A stretch of 64,000 nucleotides of DNA from an uncultured bacterium (GTDB lineage: Bacteria; Chloroflexota; UBA5177; JANWHV01). The notes beneath the pieces are model-generated. The model had not been told where the DNA came from, ran no database searches, and saw only the letters and a list, made by a program, of their open reading frames with translations. The stretch is taken from NCBI GenBank assembly GCA_963827235.1, contig CAWHAE010000017.1, forward strand, positions 1 to 64,000, given 5' to 3'. The translations under genes were made by a program, and so were the position numbers. This document shows, in pieces, positions 1 through 41,085 of the stretch. Each line of letters begins with the position of its first letter. Within the stretch, counting starts at the first letter, position 1.

Positions 1-124
1 TTGAGCGTAGAAAGACCACTCCCGAGGTGACGGCCAGTCACGTCAGGAAGTCTTGATGGCTCTGCTGCTGGTGATGCACCGGGACCTCCAATCCACAGCA
101 TCACTAGACATTTCTACTGCTCGG
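1..124 (+). ncRNA. Candidate structured non-coding RNA of unassigned family
   Basis: GAGCGTAGAAA (3-13) pairs with TTTCTACTGCTC (111-122) with one bulge. Inside lie an imperfect hairpin at ~31-66 and CTGGTGATGC/GCATCACTAG at ~68-108. An intrinsic terminator follows immediately, and no credible ORF covers it. Confidence 0.35.
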
Positions 125-127
125 TTG

Positions 128-163
128 AAAACCTCTGCGTATGTCAGTACGCAGGGGTTTTTT
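128..163. terminator. Intrinsic terminator, probably bidirectional
   Basis: AAAACCTCTGCGTA-tgtcag-TACGCAGGGGTTTTTT: long stem with a T6 tail on + and A4 on the other side; it lies downstream of the convergent MerR gene. Confidence 0.8.
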
Positions 164-238
164 GTTGGCACTTGCCTGGCTGGCAAGGTGACCACGAGCA
201 GGCGGTCCTGTGACCGCTCGGCACGCAGCCGCCGCGCA

Positions 239-738
239 TTACGGTGGCAGGTCGTCGCGTCGTCTACTCATCACTGTCCTCCCACCCGGAGTCTCGCCAT
301 CACGCCACTTGATGACCGGTCTGCGGCCTGGCCCTTGCGTTTGCATCGAGCAGAGCTCATCCATCTCACGTGCCACCACACCGATATCCATGAAGAGAAA
401 GGCGGACTGGCCGTCCAGGACTGGACCGCCTCCGCTCTGTTGCGGAAGATGAAGACTTCACCGTTGAGCCCGACAAGGCTCAATTCACGCAGAGGATCAG
501 TCGAGTGTTCCCGCAGCTTGTCCACTGCCCTGCGGATCATCTGTAGAGTGATGCCCTGGTCCTTCAGCCGCATCACGACGCGTATGCGTATGAGGTCATC
601 GAAGCTGTAACGACGCTTCACCGCGCCGCCGCCACTGGGCTGCAAGAAGCCTGTCCAGGCCCAGTAGTCGAGCTGTCGGGTGGTTGCACCGGCGAGACGA
701 CAGGCCTGCCCGGTCGTAAAAAGCTCCTGTTGCTCCAA
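239..738 (-). CDS. MerR-family regulator, Rv1830/McdR/FtsR-like, with a 1-bp frameshift at ~420
   Basis: TTG start after GGAGGT; FTTGQACRLAGATTRQLDYWAWTG...RRYSFDDL...LKDQGITLQMIR. Adding one base at ~420 restores EAVQVLDGQSAFLFMDIGVVAREMDEL, which matches the family C-terminus, with a stop at 239-241. Confidence 0.8.
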
Positions 739-767
739 GGTTCTACCTCCGGCACCCAGACGCATCG

Positions 768-816
768 CAACATACATGTTGTAATGGATTATAGGGGGGC
801 AGAGGCGAGTGGTCAA
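768..816 (-). promoter_or_regulatory. Sigma70-type promoter of the MerR gene with a palindromic operator
   Basis: TTGACC (816-811), 17-bp spacer, TATAAT (793-788). The perfect inverted repeat CAACAT-AC-ATGTTG at 768-781 overlaps the expected transcription start. Confidence 0.75.
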
Positions 817-1248
817 AGCGCGGAATGCGAGCGCAGCACGGCCGGCAGCCAGGCGGTGAGCCGAGCGGCGCACCCGGATTACCAAACTTTGGTAACTCCT
901 GGCCGCGACGCCAAGTACTGCTGCAGGCAATCGTGCAGCGCGGTCGTGGCCGCGCTACCGGCGACGCCACGAAGTCCCGCGCCGCTGGAGGTACGCGTGG
1001 TCGTTCGCAGAGGGCGCCGGAAGGCCGGCGCCGCATCGAACAAGCGTGACCTGCGGGATCGCCGATGCTCCTGCGCATGCTGTTGGCGCGGCGACAGCCG
1101 GACACACCGCCTCCCTCCCCGTACGGGTCGCCATCGACTAGGGTGCCGGCTTGTCAATAGCCATCGCGCCGGCCGGCACCTGGACCGAATCCTGAGCAGA
1201 AGCGCGGGCGTTTGCGCCGCCGGCGCTTCCGCTCTGTAGCGATCGGGT

Positions 1249-2381
1249 CTACATAACCATCTCCAGCGGCCATGGCGCGGTGCACGCCGACCACGTAATG
1301 GTGATCGGGGCATCTGGATCCGTCGGCAGTGTCTTGGGCTCATACTGGCCGATCATGCCTTCGGCACGCAGGCGATCGAGCGCCTTTGCCAGTGTGCGAT
1401 TGCTGCCGCCCGTGCGCGTGTTCTGAATGCCGGCTATAGCGATCAGGCGCTCGCGCGCGATCACCAATGGCTTGCCGTGCAAGTCCATCTGACAGCGGGC
1501 CAGGTACTCACGCAGCACCGCCTGCGGCAAGGAGCGCGCGGTTGCGAGGGAACGCCCTCGATGGGACGGAACGCGGGGAATGAGTGTGTAATCAACACCC
1601 GGGCGACCCTCCCTGCTGCGCAGGCCGTCATACCACAGTTGATGAATGCGCACGCCGACGCGGTCTGGGAGGCCCTGCGCGAACACCTCGAGGATGTTCA
1701 GGTGCTGCGTCTCTTCACCGGCTTGATAGCCAACACTCTCCAGTAGCGGTGCAACCACGGCCTGCTGCTGGCGGCCGGCATTCTCGTGCCGGATGCCCAC
1801 GTGCGTGAGGTGCAGCGCCAGAAGGGTGGACGAGATCTGCCGGCGGTCACAGAGTAGTGCCGGCCTTGTGCATCTCGGGCATACCCCATGCGGTCGAGCA
1901 GATCGTTGAGACTGACCGTGAACGCGGGGTTGCGCCAGTTGGGCGGATCGTTCGCGATGGCATACAGGCACAGCATCAGCTCGCCCGCGAACGGGCCCAA
2001 AGCAGCTTTGGCGATCTCCACTGCAGCTTCACGCACGGACTGGGGATCGTCCACGTCGGGAATGGGCACCACGACCATGGTACGTGCGCGATGCAATTCC
2101 CACCGCTCAGGGGCACTGCGACCCTGCTCGTCGAGCAACGGTTGGTGGATGTCCGCTTGCGCCAGGAGGTAGCGATTGTCCACGCCGAACGCGCCATCGG
2201 TGCCTGCCTCCGCGGCAATTCGTCGTCGATAGACAAGCTCCGCCTTGCCCAGCCTGCCGCCGCTGACCTGGTCGACCTCGTGCACCGACCAATCAATGGG
2301 CATCGACGGCAACTGAATGTCGCACTCGGCGGGTCGCTCGGGCAGCCGTCGCGTAGGTTTGAACGTACGAGCGCCCGCCAT
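1249..2381 (-). CDS. Putative replication initiator (Rep, two winged-helix domains), ~377 aa, with a 1-bp frameshift at ~1850
   Basis: ORFs 1698-2510 and 1249-1971 join at HYS/DRRQISSTLLAL. WH-like segments AFTVSLNDLLDRMGY and PLVIARERLIAIAGI..NRTLAKALDRLRAEGMIGQYE recall TrfA/Rep_3-type initiators. Iteron-like repeats lie upstream and a TA pair is adjacent. Confidence 0.6.
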
Positions 2382-2456
2382 GGCACTTCCCTTCAGGCAG
2401 CGGTCCACCAGGCACGTGAGCCTGTATTGCACCGATTGAGGACTTCCTCCAAGCGT

Positions 2457-2486
2457 AGTATGTGCCGCCCAACCGCAGGCGATCAA
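2457..2486 (-). promoter_or_regulatory. Possible rep promoter abutting the repeat array
   Basis: TTGATC (2486-2481), 18-bp spacer, CATACT (2462-2457); the -35 lies ~10 bp from the first repeat core. Confidence 0.4.
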
Positions 2487-2490
2487 GAGC

Positions 2491-2650
2491 TTTCCCGCGC
2501 CTTCACGCAAGTCGCATCCGCGCCTTCACGCGCCCGGTGCTCGCGCCTTCACGCATCTGGTGCCAGGAAATAAAGCATTCGGTGCTCGCGCCTTCACGCA
2601 TCTGGTGCCTGCACCTTCACGCAACACGTGCTCGCTCGTTCACGCGCGGG
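2491..2650. repeat. Iteron-like array: six 23-bp direct repeats plus one AT-rich degenerate slot (putative oriV)
   Basis: Core CGCGCCTTCACGC or variants at 2496, 2519, 2542, 2587, 2610 and 2633; consensus GTGCTCGCGCCTTCACGCATCTG. The 2560-2581 slot is GTGCCAGGAAATAAAGCATTCG. Confidence 0.85.
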
Positions 2651-2786
2651 GTGCCTGCTGTTCGACCCCCCGCCATAGCTGTCGTAGGACCATGGACTGG
2701 ATGGAAGGACACTGTACTTGATGCCAAGGCTCCCTACGCGGCTATCCGGCACGGCGGCGGCTGTGCGCCGGAAAGACTGAGCACGG

Positions 2787-3146
2787 CTAGGTCTGCGGCT
2801 GGCCACCGACCGCAATGATGATCGCGTTGACTGTTTCGTCCAGGATCGATGCTGGCACCGCTGTGCCAAGCGGCCCGTCGTGCAGAAAGTCGCGGTCGAG
2901 CGTTGCGATCTCTTCGCAGAAGAGTACGCTAGCGTGCAGCACACCACCCGTCCCCGCCTCCAGCGGCACGTGCGTCGGGCTCGCACGGCCAGTCGAGAAG
3001 TTGGGCACCACAATGACGTCGTCAGACCGGCGGTTGCGCGTGTTTTCCGAGATCACGAGAGCTGGGCGCGGCTGATGCGGATCATTCGGCTGGCATGGCG
3101 TGTAGACGTACCACACGTCGCCGCGGCGAGGAAACGTTTCCGCCAT
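2787..3146 (-). CDS. mazF: Type II toxin, MazF/PemK family endoribonuclease
   Basis: PRRGDVWYV...PHQPRPALVISENTRNRRSDDVIVVP...SVLFCEEIATLDR; 119 aa. Confidence 0.92.
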   Translation of the reverse strand: MAETFPRRGDVWYVYTPCQPNDPHQPRPALVISENTRNRRSDDVIVVPNFSTGRASPTHVPLEAGTGGVLHASVLFCEEIATLDRDFLHDGPLGTAVPASILDETVNAIIIAVGGQPQT

Positions 3147-3147
3147 C

Positions 3148-3426
3148 TTAGCGGCGTGTCGCTGCGTACGTAGCAGCCGCGCGCCGAATGGCGCGCCATT
3201 CCTGCAGTTCTTGCTGCACGGTTGCGGATTCCGGCTCCTCGTACTGCCGCTCCAGCTCGGCTTGAACCTGCCGGCGCCGGAAGTCGCGCAGGGCCTCTTC
3301 CACCACGCGGCTGCGATTCGTCGTCGGATGCGCGGCCACGTAGGCGTCCAGGTACTTGATCGTCGCTCCGTCCAGAGAAAGACTGATCTTTTGCCGACGG
3401 TCGTCGGGCGATCGCTGCGCTACCAT
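3148..3426 (-). CDS. Ribbon-helix-helix antitoxin (MazE/CopG-like)
   Basis: RQKISLSLDGATIKYLDAYV...NRSRVVEEALR, acidic C-terminus, translationally coupled upstream of mazF; TACC-tct-GGTA palindrome at its RBS. Confidence 0.85.
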   Translation of the reverse strand: MVAQRSPDDRRQKISLSLDGATIKYLDAYVAAHPTTNRSRVVEEALRDFRRRQVQAELERQYEEPESATVQQELQEWRAIRRAAATYAATRR

Positions 3427-3559
3427 TGTTCGTACCTCTGGTAAGACGTTTCCTGCTCCGGATCAAAGAGTACCGTGCACGCCTGTGCGGCGTCCAGCTC
3501 GCGCCGTGGCTCGTCACACCGGATCTGGGCTGGCCCAACTGGCGCGCCAGCGATTTCGA

Positions 3560-3830
3560 TCGTGGAGCCCAGATCTGCAAGGCGTGACCTGCACCGCAGC
3601 AGGCGCTGCATTGCCGTGGGCGGGGCGTTCGATGTAGACACGGATACCTCTAGGGGCACAATCGCCACCAACGCGGATGGGGGCGCCACCTGGAATGACG
3701 TCGCCACTGGCATCGGTACGAGCCTTTGGGGAGTCTCCTGCAGCCAGATGCCGATTTGTGTCGCGGTAGGTGACGGTGGCACCATTCTCACCAGCACGGA
3801 CGTGGGCGCAACCCGGAACATCAACTTCTC
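3560..3830 (+). pseudogene. Fragment of a Cys-rich BNR/YCF48-like beta-propeller gene
   Basis: DLQGVTCTAAG|RCIAVGG...DGGATW...SLWGVSCSQMPICVAVGDGGTILTSTDVGAT is split over two frames and has the same repeat unit as 37003-37974. Confidence 0.7.
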
Positions 3831-4074
3831 TGGCAACTGCCACCCGCTTTGGGGCCACGTCTGCCCAGACCTCCGCGCAGTAGCCTGCGTAACCGGCGGC
3901 ACGTGTCTGAAGCTGGTCCGCCAAGCGCCTGGCCCTTGCCGAAGGCGGCCCGGTACATTTTCTGGCGAGAGCATGCGTGCCAACCTCCGCTAGGGTGTGA
4001 GGCGGGTAGCGCTGCGCCAAGACTTCGACAGGCGCCGTGGATACCGCGAAGGTGAATGCCGTGGGAGGTACCGG

Positions 4075-4830
4075 ATGAGTCAAGGGTCTGAGCCCCGGCG
4101 CGGTGACAAGTCTGTTGGCCCCGGCAAGGCGCAGCCGCACCGCTCCGATGCGGCGCGGCCTGAAGCGAAATGCCGAAACGTGCTCGGCGAGATCGACAGT
4201 ATGCGAGCTGACCTGCTCCATGACGTGGACGCACGGTTCGCGCCTATGGTTCTCGAGCTGGAAACCGCTCTTCACACGTCGTCCGCAACCACGGCTCCGC
4301 TCGCGCGCCTATATCGGCAACAACTCGCGGCCCTCACGGAGGCGCAGAGGGACACGCGGCAACTGGTAGCCAAGCGCTTGGCCTTGACACGCCGAACATG
4401 CGAGGACCTCCAGAATCACGCGGGGTCAATCACGGCATCGCCGCGGGCATCAGTTGGCGGCGCGGCGGCTTCGGGTGGCCGCGCCGCATCCACGCAAAAC
4501 AAGCTCGACCTCCACGGACTGGGAGCCGAAGAGGCGAAGAGGGTGGTCGACAGGTTCCTGCGTGAAGCCCATGACGGCAACGAGCTCCGCGTAATCGTCA
4601 TCCACGGGCAGGGTAATCACAGCAAGGGCGGACCGGTTCTGCGCGCTGGTATTCGGGCCTATCTCTCACACCATCGGCTGGTCGAGCGGACGGAGACCGC
4701 TGGCCCCGCGGACGGCGGCGACGGCGCCACGATAGCATACCTTCGTCGCGATATCCTGCCGGCACGAGGTACTACTGCAACTCCATCACGAAGCTCGACG
4801 TTCCGCTCGCGCCGGACGTCGACGCCCTGA
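4075..4830 (+). CDS. Smr/MutS2 C-terminal domain protein with an N-terminal coiled coil
   Basis: KLDLHGLGAEEA...VIVIHGQGNHSKGGPVLRAGI...GGDGATIAYL; GGAGGT RBS before ATG 4075. Confidence 0.88.
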   Translation: MSQGSEPRRGDKSVGPGKAQPHRSDAARPEAKCRNVLGEIDSMRADLLHDVDARFAPMVLELETALHTSSATTAPLARLYRQQLAALTEAQRDTRQLVAKRLALTRRTCEDLQNHAGSITASPRASVGGAAASGGRAASTQNKLDLHGLGAEEAKRVVDRFLREAHDGNELRVIVIHGQGNHSKGGPVLRAGIRAYLSHHRLVERTETAGPADGGDGATIAYLRRDILPARGTTATPSRSSTFRSRRTSTP

Positions 4831-6269
4831 CGGCAGTGTGTGCAAGTGCGGGTGACGTGTCGGGCACTACGACTGTCTCATGCACCCCGGCATGGACGGA
4901 AGCATCACCATACTTCCCTGAAGAACACTGCCAATGTGACGTCCGGCCTCGGCCACCGGGGACTGCCGCTCGGCGGGGGTCGGTGCCTCAGGCAAGGAGC
5001 ATGCGATGACCGTCACGAGGCGAGCTCGGCGTTTCCAGTGGCTTCTGGCGGGACCCCGCTTGAGCCTTCGCCTGACGGGCGCCGGGGTGGGCCTCCTGAG
5101 CATTCGAGGCGCGGGCTCCTACTCTGGAGCAGCAGCTGCACGCTCGGCGCCCGTTGATTGGCGCCTGGTCTTGCACCGGCAAACCGTGCCCTTCTCAGGG
5201 ACCGTTGCCGGCAGTCGAGGCGACTGCCTCCACAGGGCACATTGTGGTTCTGCTTCGCCGTGTCAGCAGGCTCGGCATGATTGATAGGCGTTCCACGCCG
5301 TGGTAATGGTTCTCGGCAGATATCGTGGCCGCCGGCATGCCGCTACCCTACGTGTACGTCGGCTTCGACCACGGGGTCGCGGTAGTGACGGCGACTGCGC
5401 CCGTGATGATCGTAAGGCTTGCAGCGAGTGCAAGAGCGACACGTGGTCTCACCAACCCATGCAACGTGGGTGTCGGGAAATCGGCTCCTGAACGCCAGAG
5501 TTCAGGGAGAAGAGGCGCGGCCAGCACGCCGAGTGCTGCTGCGGACAGAGATCGTTGTCAGGGAACCGAGCGGTGTCCAGCCGGTGGCCAAACGAGTTCG
5601 CCAATGACGCTGAAGGCATTTGCCTGGAGGCGATAGTGCTCGCCGCCCATTTCCGACAAAGGCGTGAGATGCGCAGGTCTGACTGCGACGAGGAGCACGG
5701 CCGTCGGACCGGCGTCGAATCGCGCTCCGTACGGAACCCGGGGATTACCGGAATGGCAGGTCGATGGCAACCCAGGTGACGCTCACAAGGCTTCAAGAGT
5801 GGACTAGAGCGGTCTGCTTCTGGTTTCGTCCGTTTGGCTGAGGGCACAGTCCGTTCCAAGACTGACATTGGAGGGGCTGGGGGCAGGCCTGGCAGTGCTG
5901 ACATCGTGTTCGCGCATGTGCTCGCTCTGGAACATGTCTCATTCGGCGGCCTCACACGTCTTTGCGTGTTCTCCAGATACATGGTCGGCAAGCGCGCCAC
6001 GCGGGATATGCGTGCGCGGTGTACGCCCCCTTCAATGCCAACTCGGGCGACGGTACCGCATAGCTCTGCCTTGCAGCGGCACAGCGTTGCGGGCGAATGC
6101 GACCCGAACTGGCTGTCGCTCATCGCGCCGGGCAAACGAGCGGCTCCTCCGCTCCGAGCGGTCGGAAACACAATCTGCAGTGTGCGGTGCGACTCATCAC
6201 AGGTCTACGCGTTCGAGCCGTGCCGTTGGGGAACCGGACCCGAAGACATCTTCTGGAGAGAGGTGGATA

Positions 6270-7463
6270 ATGGAGTGCTCGATCGTTCAAGTCAGATGGA
6301 GCACGCGATTGGCTTTGCGGCTGGTCGCGTGTTTGGTACCGCTAACGTTCTTACTGCTAGGCGTGCCGGCACAAGCTGCTGCTATTGCCACGGCGCCGGC
6401 GTCGATTTCAAGACTTCTGATCACCCCGTCGACCGTCGTGCCGGCGGGGCGCGTTCTCCTCACAGGCTCAGGTTTCTTTCCGGGTGAGCAAGTACTGTTG
6501 CGGCTGGACAACGTCCTTGTAGGAAGCTGCTTCACCAATGGGCACGGCACTTTCAGCACTGCACGCACCCTCAATACATCTCAGGGCACCCACACTGTGA
6601 CGGTCGTTGGCAGCGTCAGCCACCGGGCGGCCTCCACAACGCTGCGGGTAGTTCAACCGGTTATCACGAGCACAGAGGTCGCTCCAAATACCGTTCATCG
6701 TGACGGCATCGTGCGTGTGAGTAGCACCAACTTCGTTCCCGGTGAGCTGGTCCTGATCCGCATCGGCAGCACACTCGTACAGGCAGCGACGGCAGACCAC
6801 CGTGGGCGCATCGTTGATGTTGCTTGTACTGTGCCGAGCACGGCCGCCCACGGGGTAACCTACGTTACCAGCACTGGTTCGCGCAGCGAGCGTAGCTCGA
6901 GGGCTGCGTTGCGAATCACTCTGGTGCCATCAGCCAGCACGCAGCTCGCCCTTTCGTCGACGAGCCTTCATCGCGGAAGCACGGTCAGCGTCTCTGGTGG
7001 CGGCTTTCGGGGTGGGGAGATCGTGTTGATTCGCCTGGGCGGAGGACTCGTGCAAGCGGCAGTAGCCGATGCGCGCGGCAACTTTAGCAAGGCCAGATTC
7101 GGAGTGCCGGCGAATACCCCATATGGGAGCTTCCCCGTCACGGCCACCGGCGCGCGTAGCGGGCGTTCTGCGCTCGTGGAAGTGCGCATAACCATGGCGG
7201 TCAGCGCCGGGATCTCGGGCTCACCTACAGTGGTGGGGCGTCAGGGTATCGTCACGCTGTCTGGCTATGGCTTCCAGTCAGGCGAGATTGTGATTATCCG
7301 CCTCAACGGACAGGTGGTTCAGGCGGTCACCGCGGATGGCCATGGGAGCTTTGTGCACACGAGCTTCCAGATTCCGGAGCGATTCCACAAGATCAAGGCG
7401 ACGTTGCTGGCGAGCGGAGCGCGCAGCAGTCGTCACGCCCAGATACGCATCGTGATCTTCTAG
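6270..7463 (+). CDS. Secreted protein with four tandem Ig-like (IPT/TIG-like) repeats
   Basis: Signal peptide ending PAQA. Four ~88-aa repeats with a GxGFxxGExVxIRL...VQAxxADxxGxF motif. Confidence 0.75.
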   Translation: MECSIVQVRWSTRLALRLVACLVPLTFLLLGVPAQAAAIATAPASISRLLITPSTVVPAGRVLLTGSGFFPGEQVLLRLDNVLVGSCFTNGHGTFSTARTLNTSQGTHTVTVVGSVSHRAASTTLRVVQPVITSTEVAPNTVHRDGIVRVSSTNFVPGELVLIRIGSTLVQAATADHRGRIVDVACTVPSTAAHGVTYVTSTGSRSERSSRAALRITLVPSASTQLALSSTSLHRGSTVSVSGGGFRGGEIVLIRLGGGLVQAAVADARGNFSKARFGVPANTPYGSFPVTATGARSGRSALVEVRITMAVSAGISGSPTVVGRQGIVTLSGYGFQSGEIVIIRLNGQVVQAVTADGHGSFVHTSFQIPERFHKIKATLLASGARSSRHAQIRIVIF

Positions 7464-7634
7464 AAGGCGCGGTGAGCGATCGACGACGTAGCCAGAGCGT
7501 GACTGAGTTGAAAGCACAAGCGCACGGTCAGCACTACCGGGAGTGCATCGATGCCTGCGGCGCAGCTATTCTGATCTTTGTTCCTCACACGCGACCCATC
7601 CCCAGCCTAGCACGCTGCAGAAAGGACTCTCGCC

Positions 7635-8897
7635 ATGCACGTTGCCGCGTTCCCTCGTATGGCCCTCCGAGTTTGCTCGCACGCAGCGTGGCCGCCCGTA
7701 CGACAGCGGGATCACTGGCCTCGACCGCACAAGTCCCTGATCGCCGTCGCGGCCGTGACCATGCTTTGCGCCATGGCTTCCGCCGGCGGGAGAGGTACTG
7801 CAGGCTCAGCGAGCGTGCTGGCCGCAGCCCGGGTCGACAGAACCGATGCCGCCGGCATCACCTGGCTGTGCCGCCCTGGCCTGCCTGATGACCCTTGCGC
7901 GGCGAATTCGGCTGCCACTGCTATCCAGGCCGATGGCGCGAGAACCCTGGTGCCCGCTGCACCGGCCGCCACTCCCGCCGTCGACTGCTTCTATGTCTAT
8001 CCCACCGCAAGCACCGAGCATACGCTCAACGCCGACCTGACTGTGCAGCCGGCTGAGGTTGCCGCCGCCGTCGCGCAGGCCTCGCGCTTCTCGCAGGTGT
8101 GCGAGGTGTGGGCACCAATGTACCGCCAGCATACGCTCTATGCGCTGGCGACCGGCAAGCTCACCGCTGCGGTCCTGGCGACGGCCTACCAGAGCCTGCT
8201 AAAGGGCTGGAAAGACTATCTCACGCACTACAACCATGGTCGGCCGCTTGTCCTTATCGGCCATTCGCAGGGCGACTTGATGCTGATCGCCCTCCTCGAG
8301 CAGGAGTTTGACCGCAATTCCGCCCTGCGCCGCCGGCTGGTGTCGGCGATTGTACCGGGAGGCAATGTCACGGTACCCACCACGGCCGGCGCCACAGGTA
8401 GCTTCCAGCATATCCCCGCCTGCCGCAGCGCCGGGCAAGTCGGCTGCGTCATCGCCTACTCGACGTATCCCACCCAGCCGCCGCCCGACAGCCTCTTCGG
8501 ACGTCCGGGCCAGGGTGCGGTGCTGCCCGGGGTGCAATCGACCGTGGCTGGACTGCAGGTCCTCTGCACGAATCCGGCTGCACTGGGCGGCGGCCGCGGC
8601 GCACTAGATTCCTTCTATCCGACCTCAGACCTGCCGCCGCGTGGGGTGCAGGTGACCACGCCGTGGGTAGAGTATCCCAACCGCTACACGGCACAGTGCG
8701 AGCACGCTGGTGGGGCGACCTGGCTGGAGGTGACGTCGACGCACCTCCCGGGCGACCAGCGTCCGCGGCTTCGAGAGGGGCGCACTGGGCTCACCGGGCC
8801 GCGCTGGGGCTTCCATATCGCCGACATCAACTTGGGGCTCGGCAACCTCATCCGTGATGTCCAGGCTGAGGAGCGGGCGTACCGCTCGACGCCGTGA
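7635..8897 (+). CDS. DUF3089-family secreted alpha/beta hydrolase
   Basis: WLCRPG..DDPC, VDCFYVYPT, WAPMYRQ, GHSQG nucleophile elbow, GFHIAD; start codon uncertain. Confidence 0.85.
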   Translation: MHVAAFPRMALRVCSHAAWPPVRQRDHWPRPHKSLIAVAAVTMLCAMASAGGRGTAGSASVLAAARVDRTDAAGITWLCRPGLPDDPCAANSAATAIQADGARTLVPAAPAATPAVDCFYVYPTASTEHTLNADLTVQPAEVAAAVAQASRFSQVCEVWAPMYRQHTLYALATGKLTAAVLATAYQSLLKGWKDYLTHYNHGRPLVLIGHSQGDLMLIALLEQEFDRNSALRRRLVSAIVPGGNVTVPTTAGATGSFQHIPACRSAGQVGCVIAYSTYPTQPPPDSLFGRPGQGAVLPGVQSTVAGLQVLCTNPAALGGGRGALDSFYPTSDLPPRGVQVTTPWVEYPNRYTAQCEHAGGATWLEVTSTHLPGDQRPRLREGRTGLTGPRWGFHIADINLGLGNLIRDVQAEERAYRSTP

Positions 8898-25718: not shown

Positions 25719-25844
25719 ATGTCTACCCTTCCGAGTACTCAGTTCGCGCATGATGCGCTATTCCCGTTATAGCAAGATGCGCCGGACGTGTGGCAAACAG
25801 ACGGAATGCGCGCCCGCGAATCGCGGCTGGTTTGTACTGCTACC

Positions 25845-26172
25845 GACAGTACTGTCCCATGGACCGGAGTCATAGACCGTGATCGCTTTGGCATCGTTCC
25901 ACTGATCTTGGGTAGGCAGCGTGCCGGATGGGAGGAGCTGGGTATCCCGCTCCAGTTGCCGGCGAAGATAGGGCTGCTTGGTTTCGGGAGGTGCCATGAA
26001 GTTGTCGCCCCAGATCCTGCCCCAAAACAAGAACTTCTTCCGCGAACGGTAGTTGATCCGGTCCCAGTAGGGCAACGTCAAGTCGCTCGGTGCGCCCGTC
26101 AGAGCCGCGTCAGCAGTCCGCAGTTCGTTCTCGAAATCCAGGATGAAGTGTCGATGCCACGGCGGGATTGAC
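25845..26172 (-). pseudogene. Tyrosinase internal fragment (CuA region)
   Basis: Extending ORF 25767-26081 upstream gives IPPWHRHFILDFENELR...LTLPYWDR...LRRQL...LPT...YDSGPWDS. An in-frame stop lies just upstream and there is no CuB motif. Confidence 0.75.
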
Positions 26173-26672
26173 GTCCTCGACCGCTATGCACCCTCGCCGC
26201 CCGCCCTGCAGCGGGCCAACCTTGAAGTAGCCGTTCAGGTTACCGGCGCGTTCCTGCACCTGGAGAGGGACTGTGCCCGCCTGCCACGCCCGATCCCACG
26301 GTGACCAATGCGACGCCGGAGGCCACGGAGGACGGCAAGCTGGAGATGGCTACGGCAGCACTCGAGGCAGTCCCGGCGAGTCTGATCACCGCGTTGCCCG
26401 TCCCCCGACCCTTTCTGCGGTGGTTGCTCGACCGGCGCTCCCAATCGCGACCTGTGCGTCGTCGGCAACCACTGCCGGAGGCCGAGTCTGCCCGCGCCTC
26501 ATGCGGCGACAACGCGCGGCATTCCCAATGGATCACTCTTGCAGCCCCCACGTGATCAGGCTGCGCCGTCAGGTACATGCCCTGTCGCCGGTAGGCGAAC
26601 GCCTGCGCCGAGGGCAGAGTCCCGGCTAGACAACGCCTCGGAGGTGTGCCGGCATGTTGCCGGATGCGGTTC

Positions 26673-28700: not shown

Positions 28701-30173
28701 GTAAGAGTTCAGAGTCGAGGTCAAAGAGTCTGCAAGGCGTGGAGGCAGGCAGCGAAGGGGTTGAGGTCGCGCGCAGCCCAGGTGGAGAAGACGCTGGCCA
28801 GGTCGCAACGGATGGCCGAGCCGGCATCGCCGCGCGAGCCACCGCTGATCTTGCGGGCGATCACCTGGGGACGCACGGTGCGTTCGGCCAGGTTGTTCGT
28901 GGGGCTGACGCCGGGCGTGCGGATGAACTCGAACAGTTCGCTCTCATAGCGGTGCAGGCGGGTGGCCAAGACCTGAGCCGGATGCCCGGGCGTCGTGCGA
29001 TAGCAGCGGGCCAGCAGCCGCAGCCGCCGTTCCAGGTTGCGGGCCACGCGGGCACGCTCCCGCAGGGTGCAGGCGGACAGGTCCAAGGCACGCGCACCGG
29101 CAAAGAGGTCCTTGAGCGCACGGACCCAGTCCTGCACGTCTGGCCGCGCAGGGCAGTCCGCACCGAGCTTGTGGGCGTCGCGCAAGAGATGGGCCCAACA
29201 GCGCTGGTGTGGTCCGGGGTACTGGTCGTAGGCCGCGTAGAAGTCGGTGCTCAGCACGCCGCCAAAGTCGCCCACCAGCTCCCGTGCCACCTGGCCCGAT
29301 CGGCTCGGGTGGAAGGTATACAGCCGCGTGGCCGCCGGCCCGTCCGTGGCTTGCACCCACAAATAGCCGTTCTGCCCGTCTTGGCGCCAGCCCGTTTCGT
29401 CCATGTACTGCACCGGACTGGCCCGTGTCTGGGCTCGAATCGTCGCCACCACCGGTGCCAACTGCTGCCGCAGGCGGGCCAGGATGTCTTGCAGGCCGCC
29501 GATCGAGAACCGGAGCCCGTAGACCTGGTCCAGCAAGGCTTGCACCTGTGCCAAGGGTAGCCGAGCGCTGGTGCGCAAGACACCAATCAGGCTGGCCAGC
29601 CGCACGCCTATCCGCCCCTGCCCCAACACCTGCCCCGCAAAAGAGACCCGCGGCGTCTTGTATGCGCGACAGACCGGACAGTACCGCTTGAGGGTCTGGT
29701 GCTCCACCACGCTCACCGGCGTGGCCGGCACCTCCAGCACTTCCCGCCGCCGCTGCACCGCTCCGTCGCGTAACGTATAGCCGCAATCCGGACAGCGGTC
29801 ATAGGCGTGTCGGACGTATTGGCTCGGCGTGCTCCGCGGCCGACCATGGTTCTGCTCCGCCGCCCGCTGTCGCCGCGTTTCCCCTTCCGCCTTCTCCCGC
29901 TTGACCCGGTTGGCCTTGGCCCAGGGCGGCGGCGGCCGCTTCTCCGCCTCCAGTTCAGCTATCCGCTGTTCCAGTGCCGCCACTTTCACGCGTAAAGCCG
30001 CGTTTTCGACCTGGAGTTGCGCCACCTGCTCCCGCAGCAGCGCATTCTGGATCTGCAGTTCGGCAATCAGGGCGAGGGCGTCTTCGAGCGTCATCCCTTG
30101 ACGCTACCCGCTTCATCCGTAGCGGGCCAGCAACCTCAACCGATTGCACCTGCATCTACTTCTGAGCTCTTAC
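28701..30173 (-). mobile_element. IS66-family insertion sequence (single-ORF, ISBst12-like group), intact
   Basis: Terminal IRs GTAAGAGTTCAG (28701) and CTGAGCTCTTAC (ending 30173); perfect 8-bp TSD TCCGTGAC at 28693-28700 and 30174-30181. Confidence 0.95.
28721..30094 (-). CDS. IS66-family DDE transposase
   Basis: N-terminal coiled coil, CPDCG and CPVC zinc finger, MDETGW, STDFYAAY, QRCWAHLLRD, PTNNLAERTVR. Confidence 0.95.
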   Translation of the reverse strand: MTLEDALALIAELQIQNALLREQVAQLQVENAALRVKVAALEQRIAELEAEKRPPPPWAKANRVKREKAEGETRRQRAAEQNHGRPRSTPSQYVRHAYDRCPDCGYTLRDGAVQRRREVLEVPATPVSVVEHQTLKRYCPVCRAYKTPRVSFAGQVLGQGRIGVRLASLIGVLRTSARLPLAQVQALLDQVYGLRFSIGGLQDILARLRQQLAPVVATIRAQTRASPVQYMDETGWRQDGQNGYLWVQATDGPAATRLYTFHPSRSGQVARELVGDFGGVLSTDFYAAYDQYPGPHQRCWAHLLRDAHKLGADCPARPDVQDWVRALKDLFAGARALDLSACTLRERARVARNLERRLRLLARCYRTTPGHPAQVLATRLHRYESELFEFIRTPGVSPTNNLAERTVRPQVIARKISGGSRGDAGSAIRCDLASVFSTWAARDLNPFAACLHALQTL

Positions 30174-38828: not shown

Positions 38829-39043
38829 GGTTCGGCTGAGGCGTCATGGGGTAATCGGGAAGGGAGCCGACGAGACGTGAGAGGGAGCTATTGCTGCAAA
38901 CATTTCTTCGCCGGCAGGTGCCGGGGCATCGCGGATGACTGTCCGAGGTGGGCACGTGCCCTGGCAGTGACCATGCGCCGTGTGCAGCCGATCCTCGTTG
39001 TGGTCCGGCAGGCGCCACTTGGCCGGCTGGTCGCGGTGCAGCC

Positions 39044-40039
39044 ATGACTGCAAAACACGCGCGCGCGGATTCGGAGCGGCAACCTGCTAGTGTCACGCCG
39101 CTGCGATCGCCGCTGGCTCCGGCCACGCTCATGCCGCGCGTGGGCATCGATCCGGTGGCGGCATACCTGGCGACGCTGGCACCCAAGAGCCGCGCGGTCG
39201 TTCGGGAGCGCCTGCAAGCGGTGGCGCGGGAGATCGGCGCGGATCCGGCGAGCATGCCGTGGCACGAGCTTCGCGCGCCCCACGTCGACTTCATCCGCGG
39301 TCGCCTGCTCGAGCTGGGCCGGGCGCCCGCCACGGTCAATCTGACGCTGGCCGCGCTGCGCGGCGTGCTCAAACAGGCGCGCAATCAAAACCTGATTGCC
39401 GACGAGGAGTACCGACGGATTGCAGAGGTGAAGCCGGCGCGAGGATCGCGTCTGCCGGCCGGCCGTGATATCTCGGGCGGCGAGCTGCGCGCCATGGTGG
39501 AAGTCTGCGTACATGATCAGGGCGCAGCCGGCCCGCGCGACCTGGCGATCCTTGCCGTGCTCTACATCGGCGGCTTGCGGCGCAGCGAGCTGGTGGCACT
39601 CGACGTCACTGACTATGGCGCCGATCCTCCCTCATTGCGTGTGCGGCACGGCAAGGGCGATAAGGAGCGATTGGTGCCGCTCACCGGCAGCGCTGCGTCG
39701 GCACTCGAGTCCTGGCTGCGTAGGCGGGGAGAGCGCCCAGGCCGGCTCTTCCTGCCGGTGACGCAGTCCGGCGTCGTGACCGGCGAGTCGATAAGCTCCA
39801 TCGCCGTGTACAACATGCTGCAAAAGCGCGCCAAGCAAGCCGGTGTCGCCCACCTATCCCCTCACGACCTCCGGCGCACGTTTGTCAGCGACCTCTTGGA
39901 CGCCGGCGTCGATCTCTCTGCAGCCCAGCAGTTGGCCGGCCACGCCAGTGTGGTGACCACCGCCCGCTACGATCGTCGCGGTGAGGCAACCAAGCGCAGG
40001 AGCGTCGAAAAACTGCACTTCCCGCTGCCTGCTATGTAG
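39044..40039 (+). CDS. Tyrosine recombinase (XerC/D-like, resolvase-type)
   Basis: Catalytic set GLRRSE, HGKGDK, HDLRR, LAGH, TARY; N-terminal SAM-like region (APATVNLTLAALRGV); no arm-binding domain. Confidence 0.93.
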   Translation: MTAKHARADSERQPASVTPLRSPLAPATLMPRVGIDPVAAYLATLAPKSRAVVRERLQAVAREIGADPASMPWHELRAPHVDFIRGRLLELGRAPATVNLTLAALRGVLKQARNQNLIADEEYRRIAEVKPARGSRLPAGRDISGGELRAMVEVCVHDQGAAGPRDLAILAVLYIGGLRRSELVALDVTDYGADPPSLRVRHGKGDKERLVPLTGSAASALESWLRRRGERPGRLFLPVTQSGVVTGESISSIAVYNMLQKRAKQAGVAHLSPHDLRRTFVSDLLDAGVDLSAAQQLAGHASVVTTARYDRRGEATKRRSVEKLHFPLPAM

Positions 40040-40564: not shown

Positions 40565-40760
40565 ATGACAGTACGGCACAATGGTGCGGCCTCCCAGTTC
40601 GAGGTGCAACACGACGATCTCCTTGCGGTGCTGCAATACGATCGCACCGACAAGCGCTTGATCCTGGTGCACACCGAAGCGCCTGAGCCATTGGCAGGCA
40701 GAGGCGTCGGTACCGCGCTGGCACGAGCGGCGCTGGCCTACGCCGGGGCGCATCGGCTCT
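40565..40760 (+). pseudogene. YjdJ-like small GNAT acetyltransferase, 3' truncated
   Basis: MTVRHNGAASQFE...LVHTEAPEPLAGRGVGTALARAAL; lacks the terminal P-x-C-x-F/Y segment and runs into IS sequence. Confidence 0.75.
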
Positions 40761-40764
40761 TCTT

Positions 40765-41085
40765 GCATCGACGAGGTGCGCACGGCCTACCGCGCCCCAA
40801 AGGAGAACTCCATCTGTGAGCGCCTGCTTGGCAGCGTACGCCGCGAGTGCCTGGATCACGCGTTTGTCCTCAACGAAGCGCACTTGCTCCGTGTCCTCCA
40901 GGAGTACGTAGTGTATTACAACACGGTCCGACCACATCAAGGCTTAGGCCAGCGTATCCCCGATCCACCGCATGCGGCTAGCCCGGTCACAGGCGCAGTC
41001 CAGGCCACGCCGGTGCTTGGCGGGCTTCACCATGCCTACGCTCGGGCAGCTTGAAGGCGTGTGGACGCACTTTTCAGCCAGCACA
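40765..41085 (+). mobile_element. Right-end remnant of an integrase-core (IS481/IS3-like) insertion sequence
   Basis: RAPKENSICERLLGSVRRECLDH...YYNTVRPHQGLGQ...LGGLHHAYARAA*, followed by a probable terminal IR ending ...TTTTCAGCCAGCACA at 41085. Confidence 0.8.

Follow-up and report, generated by a model that had tools for sequence, protein, structure and literature searches.

Gene X and the adjacent repeat array

The locus described here lies at the left edge of a stretch of 64,000 nucleotides from an uncultured bacterium of the Chloroflexota (contig CAWHAE010000017.1, positions 1 to 64,000), which was analyzed as a whole and is called the window in the following. It comprises a gene for a putative replication initiator (Rep) of an unnamed family, here called X, an array of iteron-like direct repeats, a gene pair resembling mazEF and a gene coding for a MerR-type regulator (Table 1). 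All four genes are located on the minus strand, on which the order from high to low coordinates is antitoxin gene, toxin gene, a spacer of 115 bp, the repeat array, a second spacer of 109 bp reaching to the start codon of X, gene X, a hairpin, a promoter and the MerR gene. The G+C content of the region is 63-64%. The gene content had been outlined in an earlier note on this DNA, which was made from the sequence alone and whose claims are taken up below where results bear on them.

Table 1. Features of the locus at the left edge of the 64-kb window, ordered along the minus strand
Feature	Position	Strand	Description
Ribbon-helix-helix (RHH) antitoxin gene, MazE-like, intact	3148..3426	-	92 aa; NCBIfam MazE NF050104 at 7.9e-8
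mazF/pemK-like toxin gene, intact	2787..3146	-	119 aa; PF02452 at 3.7e-15, profile positions 1-107 of 109
Iteron-like array	2490..2672		six good 23-bp units and two degenerate units; core CGCGCCTTCACGCA
Degenerate 22-nt unit	2559..2580		mid-array, between the third and fourth good units
Gene X, Rep-like, unnamed family	1249..2381	-	ATG at 2381, stop at 1249; ~377 aa if read through
Inverted repeat, 17 nt	1194..1234	-	arms 88% complementary, loop of 7 nt; 15 nt past the X stop
Sigma-70-like promoter	788..816	-	TTGACC-17-TATAAT, 11 of 12 (strong); directly before the start codon of the MerR gene
MerR-family helix-turn-helix (HTH) gene	~300..777	-	MerR_1 PF13411 at 1.4e-12; two single-base frame breaks

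The coding sequence of X is interrupted. Its N-terminal 174 codons and its C-terminal 202 codons are in different frames, and the open reading frame (ORF) as it stands ends at 1698. When a close relative (P0012, 92% identical to X over the N-terminal half) was used as the tblastn query, the alignment switched from frame -3 (2312-1836) to frame -2 (1851-1252), which places the switch, with one base missing, in the overlap 1836-1851. Relatives of 350-414 aa span both halves of X in a single ORF. At the junction they carry the uninterrupted sequence ...GRHYSVNRRQISSTLLALH..., and their read-through at the position of the break includes HYSVNRRQISS. As the relatives read straight through the junction, one base is missing from X, and the repaired protein has a length of 377 aa. 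This confirms the claim of the earlier note that a protein of about 377 aa is hidden by a frameshift. The truncated product of 244 aa is present in the database (P0011), and no intact copy returned by the searches exceeded an identity of 92% over the N-terminal half or of 89% over the C-terminal one.

A programmed frameshift in X was considered and rejected. It would have to be a -1 shift, for which no heptamer of the type X XXY YYZ is present on the coding strand, and it is also contradicted by the single ORF in all relatives. The inverted repeat downstream of X may form a hairpin at the end of the transcript, with no T-run after it. No convincing ORF was found in the ~420 bp beyond this hairpin.

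The good units of the array begin at 2490, 2513, 2536, 2581, 2604, and 2627 in the register used for the layout, the degenerate ones at 2559 and 2650, and the units at 2536 and 2581 have the same sequence. Across the 64 kb, the 9-mer CCTTCACGC has exactly five perfect copies (2500, 2523, 2546, 2591, and 2614), all inside the array, and a sixth copy with one mismatch is located at 2637. With at most one mismatch, the 9-mer has 37 matches in the window against 23.4 ± 4.5 expected, a number which was reached in none of 100 shuffles. Tandem Repeats Finder (TRF) reported a single array at 2519-2645 with a period of 23, 5.6 copies and a score of 107. This was the best of 23 rows, with a runner-up score of 53 and at most 3.6 copies in the other rows. 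The six direct repeats which the earlier note had placed directly upstream of the split gene are therefore confirmed by counts, shuffles and TRF. The array is not coding, as its period, 23, is not divisible by three. The degenerate 22-nt unit in its middle is the only locally A/T-richer stretch of the array; as the run is only ~14 nt long, it was not called a DNA-unwinding element.

Sequence family, predicted fold and relatives of X

Neither half of X has a match in Pfam, NCBIfam or PHROG. The family is small, comprising 52 of 1.84 billion representative sequences at E<=1e-3, including the fragment of the window itself, and 22 at 1e-10. It was not found in the 72,556 plasmids of PLSDB (tblastn with three diverse members) nor in 50,697 phage records (tblastn with one member). 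A megablast search of window positions 1-25000 against plasmids gave two matches only, of 56-101 bp. X is presented here as a putative Rep of a new sequence family, which is missing from the family libraries and from the catalogued plasmids.

Some members of the family are longer. These long forms (P0033, P0042, and the protein encoded at 4765-6408 of locus L002, described below) have 540-580 aa, including an N-terminal extension of ~230 aa. The extension opens with a stretch that looks HTH-like by eye and has no Pfam match. The idea that the MerR protein of the window is such an extension in detached form was rejected (BLASTP E-values of 0.2 and 7.5, hhalign probability of 1.3%).

As the gene in the window is broken, the fold was predicted for two relatives, P0012 and the X protein of locus L001, which is 46% identical to X. 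The AlphaFold2 model of P0012, built from an alignment of 21 sequences, has a predicted local distance difference test (pLDDT) score of 88.7 and a predicted template modelling (pTM) score of 0.70, and the model of the L001 protein, built from 22 sequences, has values of 89.9 and 0.73. Both are predicted to consist of three parts, namely an N-terminal alpha/beta domain, a central winged helix and a C-terminal winged helix.

In Foldseek searches of the PDB, domains 2-3 of the initiator RctB were the top match for both models, with E-values of 1.9e-4 to 8.6e-4 for P0012 and of 1e-5 to 2.5e-5 for the L001 protein, a probability of 1.00, ~320 aligned columns and a sequence identity of 10-13%. For P0012 all three matches at E<=1e-3 were to these RctB domains (5tbf, 5ubf); the next match was the RepE dimer (2.3e-2), and RepE or RepE54 made up about half of the matches listed. 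For the L001 protein 13 matches were obtained at E<=1e-3, all of them to iteron initiators, namely RctB (1e-5), RepE (1.2e-4), Pi (3.1e-4), and RepE54, and chains of iteron initiators occurred throughout the matches listed to rank 45. Furthermore, ranks 2, 3, 6, and 7 in BFVD were phage proteins named as initiators of plasmid replication (1e-2 to 7e-2). The nearest named clusters of the ESM Atlas carried Rep3_N, RepC, RPA or RepA_C, which are regarded as leads only. Taken as models, these predictions support the tandem winged-helix fold of iteron-plasmid initiators for the X family.

Related loci were searched for in the representative genomes of GTDB with an alignment of seven sequences. Here, 42 stretches matched, of which three passed tblastn and two were true relatives. 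The third, from a member of the Saccharibacteria (L003), is a false positive, as its match of 71 aa lies on a strand without an ORF. The first true relative (L001) is a contig of 4.6 kb from a metagenome-assembled genome (MAG) of the Chloroflexota, the second one (L002) a contig of 10.6 kb from a MAG of the Chthonomonadales.

On L001, a parB gene at the contig edge (ParB_N at 1.7e-23) overlaps the start of an X gene coding for 351 aa, which is followed by a repeat array and a gene coding for a protein of 522 aa. The array consists of six units of the type GGTGCGGTTACTCATAA with an exact spacing of 23 bp, beginning 9-32 bp past the stop codon of X. The 522-aa protein is encoded at 2359-3927, ~200 bp past the array, and matches DnaD_N (7e-10), HTH_36 (9e-8), and DnaA_N (3.7e-6). 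This combination of DnaD_N and HTH_36 with a C-terminal DnaA_N domain, which corresponds to domain I of DnaA, is an unusual fusion and could link origin binding to helicase recruitment.

On L002, the coding regions of parA, parB and a long-form X (547 aa) overlap and are followed by an array and a gene resembling the phage O gene. The array begins 58 bp past the X stop codon and is built from units of ~17 bp of the type TTTCCCGATGATCACAC in both orientations, three of which are 22 bp apart. The O-like gene (6951-8072) codes for a protein of 373 aa with a weak match to Phage_rep_O (4e-4), and it holds, in frame, five partly palindromic units of 21 bp (7418-7582). In these internal repeats it resembles the O gene of phage lambda, inside which the lambda origin is located. 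In addition, L002 contains five copies of a perfect 20-bp palindrome, GTGTCTGGACGTCCAGACAC, of which 0.01 would be expected by chance. Three of them are located upstream of parA (2374-2549) and two in the 3′ end of parB (4412-4509), each set with a spacing of 78 bp, and they probably form the centromere of the L002 element. With such a separate centromere candidate, the array beside X is not the obvious ParB site. Judged by proximity, ParB would act on the palindromes, X on the intergenic array and the O-like protein on its internal array.

X is the sole protein common to the window, L001 and L002 (tblastn), and an array adjoins X in all three loci, upstream of it in the window and downstream in L001 and L002. 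The expectation of the earlier note that homologs would have upstream arrays of their own thus holds for the presence of phased arrays but not for their position. When PLSDB was searched with the protein encoded downstream of X, its winged-HTH part gave matches on 146 plasmids, which cover 37% of the query or less. In pRm1132f, the match to this type of downstream gene is an HTH protein of 104 aa, and no rep gene is annotated.

Flanking genes and the rest of the window

On one side of X and its array, the antitoxin gene is located 1 nt upstream of the toxin gene. A PemK-fold toxin preceded by a small antitoxin gene, the arrangement that defines MazEF/PemIK modules, is thus present. The assignment of the toxin is further supported by a PHROG match to a 'MazF-like growth inhibitor' (1.3e-9). 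The antitoxin stays below the cut-off of NF050104 (32.6 bits, with a cut-off of 65), and its match to Pfam RHH_1 reaches only 0.076. A type II toxin-antitoxin pair beside iterons is also found with PrpT/PrpA, the antitoxin of which is described as directly controlling plasmid copy number (PMC7848731); the pair of this locus is of the MazEF-like kind (a PemK fold with an RHH antitoxin), and the likeness to PrpT/PrpA is an analogy only.

On the other side, the MerR gene stays far below the cut-offs of the NCBIfam equivalogs (HspR, SoxR, FtsR, and others). A relative of it (P0063, 195 aa, 98% identical over the N-terminal part of the query) maps to the window in three frames (885-397, 421-341, and 341-303). 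Relative to this protein, the gene has breaks at ~397-421 and at ~341, which were not seen in the earlier note. The position of the MerR promoter implies a leaderless transcript or one with a very short leader. A possible operator is located at 879-895, namely a palindrome of 17 bp whose 8-bp arms match perfectly (TTACCAAA-C-TTTGGTAA). The -35 hexamer of the MerR promoter follows 63 bp downstream of it, and the spot ranks among the most AT-rich ones within the first 6 kb. The family matches on both sides bear out the description in the earlier note of a MazEF pair and a MerR regulator flanking the split gene, all on the minus strand.

Together, X and the MerR gene lack three single bases (one and two, respectively) within ~2.1 kb. 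None of these breaks lies in a run longer than two bases, and ~20 other ORFs of the window with at least 300 aa match Pfam families end to end without a change of frame, including an 825-aa GH95 protein, a 786-aa GH3 protein and a 621-aa DsbD-like protein. Both the intact ORFs elsewhere and the absence of homopolymers at the breaks speak for local decay rather than for an assembly that is rich in errors throughout.

The rest of the window codes for sugar and peptide transporters, glycoside hydrolases, oxidoreductases, an IS66 transposase, an integrase and gene fragments. No tRNA or Rfam match, and hence no rRNA, was found in it, nor an evident housekeeping gene. With such contents, the window could belong to a chromid, to a megaplasmid or to a chromosomal region of high plasticity. 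The best match to the aldehyde dehydrogenase encoded in the window, other than itself, is 72% identical.

Further observations concern single genes. A Smr-domain gene is located at 3997-4830 (PF01713 at 1.9e-21), and the ORF-like stretch without a family match between it and the mazE-like gene (3475-3993) may be a gene fragment, which strengthens the impression that the surroundings of the module are decayed. A 531-aa ORF at 5868-7463 has no Pfam match and appears repetitive by eye, with similar segments of ~90 aa. The middle of the window is rich in mobile DNA that is partly decayed. It contains the IS66-family transposase (28721-30103), the tyrosine integrase (38939-40039), a fragment with rve_3 only (40662-41054), and a tyrosinase fragment (25767-26183, 37 of 214 profile positions).

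Interpretation of the locus

From its predicted fold and its neighbourhood, X is most plausibly a Rep that binds iterons and whose sequence family has not been described. For the locus as a whole we favour, with about as much confidence as doubt, a plasmid-type replication and copy-control cassette that is probably an inactivated relic in a larger replicon. We infer that X would bind the array, that the array would act as origin or operator, and that the breaks would be real mutations.

The mechanism proposed for an intact system follows the analogy with RepE, Pi, TrfA and RctB. X monomers would bind the six head-to-tail 23-bp units, one per unit, via their two winged helices, and would come to lie on roughly the same face of the helix. 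The loaded array would then distort the neighbouring DNA and recruit the host helicase, in which the downstream DnaD_N/DnaA_N protein may assist in the relatives. As the array precedes the start codon by 109 bp, X bound to it would also repress the promoter of its own gene. The mazEF pair would serve as a post-segregational stabiliser and the MerR-type protein as an accessory regulator.

Among known systems, the structural comparison points most directly to RctB, the initiator of chromosome 2 of Vibrio cholerae. RctB is described as a multi-winged-helix protein which binds a head-to-tail array of sites and whose central domains resemble plasmid initiators (PMC5397143). Its domains 2-3 are the top structural neighbour of X, and the N-terminal extension of the long X forms is reminiscent of its extra domain. 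However, RctB is a four-domain protein, whereas the single-ORF relatives of X have 350-414 aa, the host lineages differ, and no sequence search links the two. The sites of RctB are given as 12-mers and 39-mers (PMC5395669), in contrast to the period of 23 bp found here.

With RepE (F), Pi (R6K), and TrfA (RK2), X would share the tandem winged-helix fold and the direct repeats of ~20 bp beside the rep gene, and the upstream position of the array, as in Rep_3-class systems, suggests autoregulation. A repeated, helically phased array next to the gene, as is characteristic of iteron-type initiators, is present in the window, in L001 and in L002. The models of the two X relatives likewise have a third, N-terminal domain, comparable to TrfA, for which a third DNA-binding domain besides the two winged helices is described (PMC8034659). 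In contrast, X is 100-150 aa longer than RepE and lacks a match to Rep_3 or another Rep family of Pfam, and the window differs from Rep_3-class origins in having neither DnaA boxes nor an AT-rich unwinding element beside the array.

The gene orders parA-parB-X in L002 and parB-X in L001 resemble the repABC systems of Alphaproteobacteria, in which the initiator is RepC. The origin of repABC replicons lies inside repC, whereas the origin of the X system would be an external iteron array. X also differs from RepC in having no match to the Pfam family RP-C. The position of X as third gene of a parA-parB-rep operon is not found in the window, where the X copy lies without parAB.

Several results weigh against the reading of the locus as a Rep gene with its iterons. 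None of 21 members of the X family matched a Rep family of Pfam (Rep_3/Rep3_N, RP-C, TrfA, RepA_C, and others) at E<=1, and a profile search of the PDB sequences returned nothing. The first of these results, together with the lack of matches in Pfam, NCBIfam and PHROG, bears out the statement of the earlier note that the initiator family could not be named. The check for a Rep fold which it had proposed was positive in Foldseek (RctB, RepE, Pi) and negative in the profile search. The global superposition of the models on known initiators is poor, with template modelling (TM) scores of 0.22-0.48 and root-mean-square deviations of 8-12 Å, so that the call of the fold rests on the local 3Di alignment of Foldseek; low TM scores would be expected if the domains are oriented differently.

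At the locus itself, no promoter-like site was called for X, no DnaA box TTATCCACA was found at up to two mismatches in 2185-3075 (with the consensus of Escherichia coli, which may not fit this lineage), and the array lacks a long AT-rich tract. Among the 24-nt windows of positions 1-6000, those with the highest A+T content are located at the MerR promoter and elsewhere outside the array. The frame breaks could be assembly errors. The genome comparison comprises two loci, L001 and L002, and in both the array is situated 200-250 bp upstream of the second replication-type gene, the product of which could be the true binder of these arrays. Finally, the iterons of the window and of L001 are no more alike than chance, as 56% of shuffles reach the observed position weight matrix score. 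A shared iteron sequence was therefore rejected, only period, copy number and position being in common, although dissimilar arrays are expected for cognate but diverged pairs of X and array.

If the breaks are sequencing or assembly errors, the same module might be the working origin of a megaplasmid or chromid, with the partition genes elsewhere, e.g., left of window position 1. The evidence from fold and context for X as a Rep applies equally to this explanation, the mazEF pair is intact, and 64 kb of accessory genes without a tRNA, an Rfam match or a housekeeping gene suit a secondary replicon. Three single missing bases are also a signature of errors, but they occur outside homopolymer runs, and long ORFs elsewhere are intact. 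Moreover, the database holds the truncated product and no closer intact copy. The location at the edge of the window leaves the left-hand neighbours outside it, yet ParA, ParB or a homologue of the downstream gene of the relatives was not detected in the 64-kb window (tblastn, E<=1), and thus no parAB or partner gene lies within 60 kb. Around the array there is neither a DnaA box nor an AT-rich tract, gene-strand polarity is absent to its right, and no GC-skew signal was found near it in the window, although the site is at the left edge and such signals can be weak. The GC-skew inversion which the earlier note had proposed to look for thus gave no signal, and its view of the locus as the origin of a megaplasmid or chromid is unsupported in the light of the three frame breaks and the missing parAB or partner genes, DnaA box and AT-rich tract. 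The status of the locus as a working origin is doubtful, and we regard this explanation as unlikely, at about half the weight of an inactivated relic.

It is less likely still that X is no initiator at all. In this case X would be a regulator or partition accessory with a Rep fold, co-expressed with parAB and acting, e.g., in operator binding or in copy control of the handcuffing type, while the downstream DnaD_N or phage-O-like protein initiates replication; the window would then hold a remnant that was never self-replicating. The arrays of L001 and L002 are indeed in the classic position upstream of a second gene with replication-type domains, but the array of the window accompanies X without such a gene. 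Likewise, the second gene of L002 has internal 21-bp repeats as in lambda O, but this internal array leaves the intergenic one free for X. The winged-HTH part of the downstream protein occurs on catalogued plasmids and the X family on none. On the other hand, the significant structural neighbours of X are all initiators and not simple repressors, and the order parA-parB-X mirrors repA-repB-repC, in which the third gene is the initiator.

Compared with the inactivated cassette that we favour, a more far-reaching view is similarly improbable to the one just discussed. According to it, X would be an unrecognised initiator family of secondary replicons in Chloroflexota, Armatimonadota and related uncultured lineages and a counterpart of RctB there, encoded in a parA-parB-rep operon with a DnaD_N/DnaA_N or phage-O partner and a two-array origin, and the window copy would be a live origin of a chromid or megaplasmid with assembly errors as breaks.

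The kind of system is known, as an iteron replicon with a winged-helix Rep, a toxin-antitoxin module and, in relatives, parAB is textbook. New are the predicted three-part architecture closest to domains 2-3 of RctB, the position of X as the third gene of a parAB operon, with an array and then another replication-type gene behind it, and the occurrence in MAGs of Chloroflexota and Armatimonadota. The family seems to be confined to poorly cultured lineages. A full-text literature search joining Chloroflex* and iteron* returned nothing beyond unrelated work on PromA plasmids, and in broader searches the name of the phylum was absent among the matches listed.

In annotation pipelines, initiators are identified from a set list of domains, as in OriV-Finder, which is described as using 35 initiator domains drawn from 470 published initiators. 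Since the X family is invisible to Pfam, NCBIfam and PHROGs and gave no match in PLSDB (tblastn with three members), replicons which use X would wrongly be taken for chromosomal sequence or for replicons without a rep gene. The X family is worth following, whereas the copy in the window is probably defective and, being broken, a weak candidate. If an intact member together with its array replicates autonomously, it would be a starting point for vectors in these phyla and would represent a further independent recruitment of the RepE/RctB fold for the replication of large replicons.

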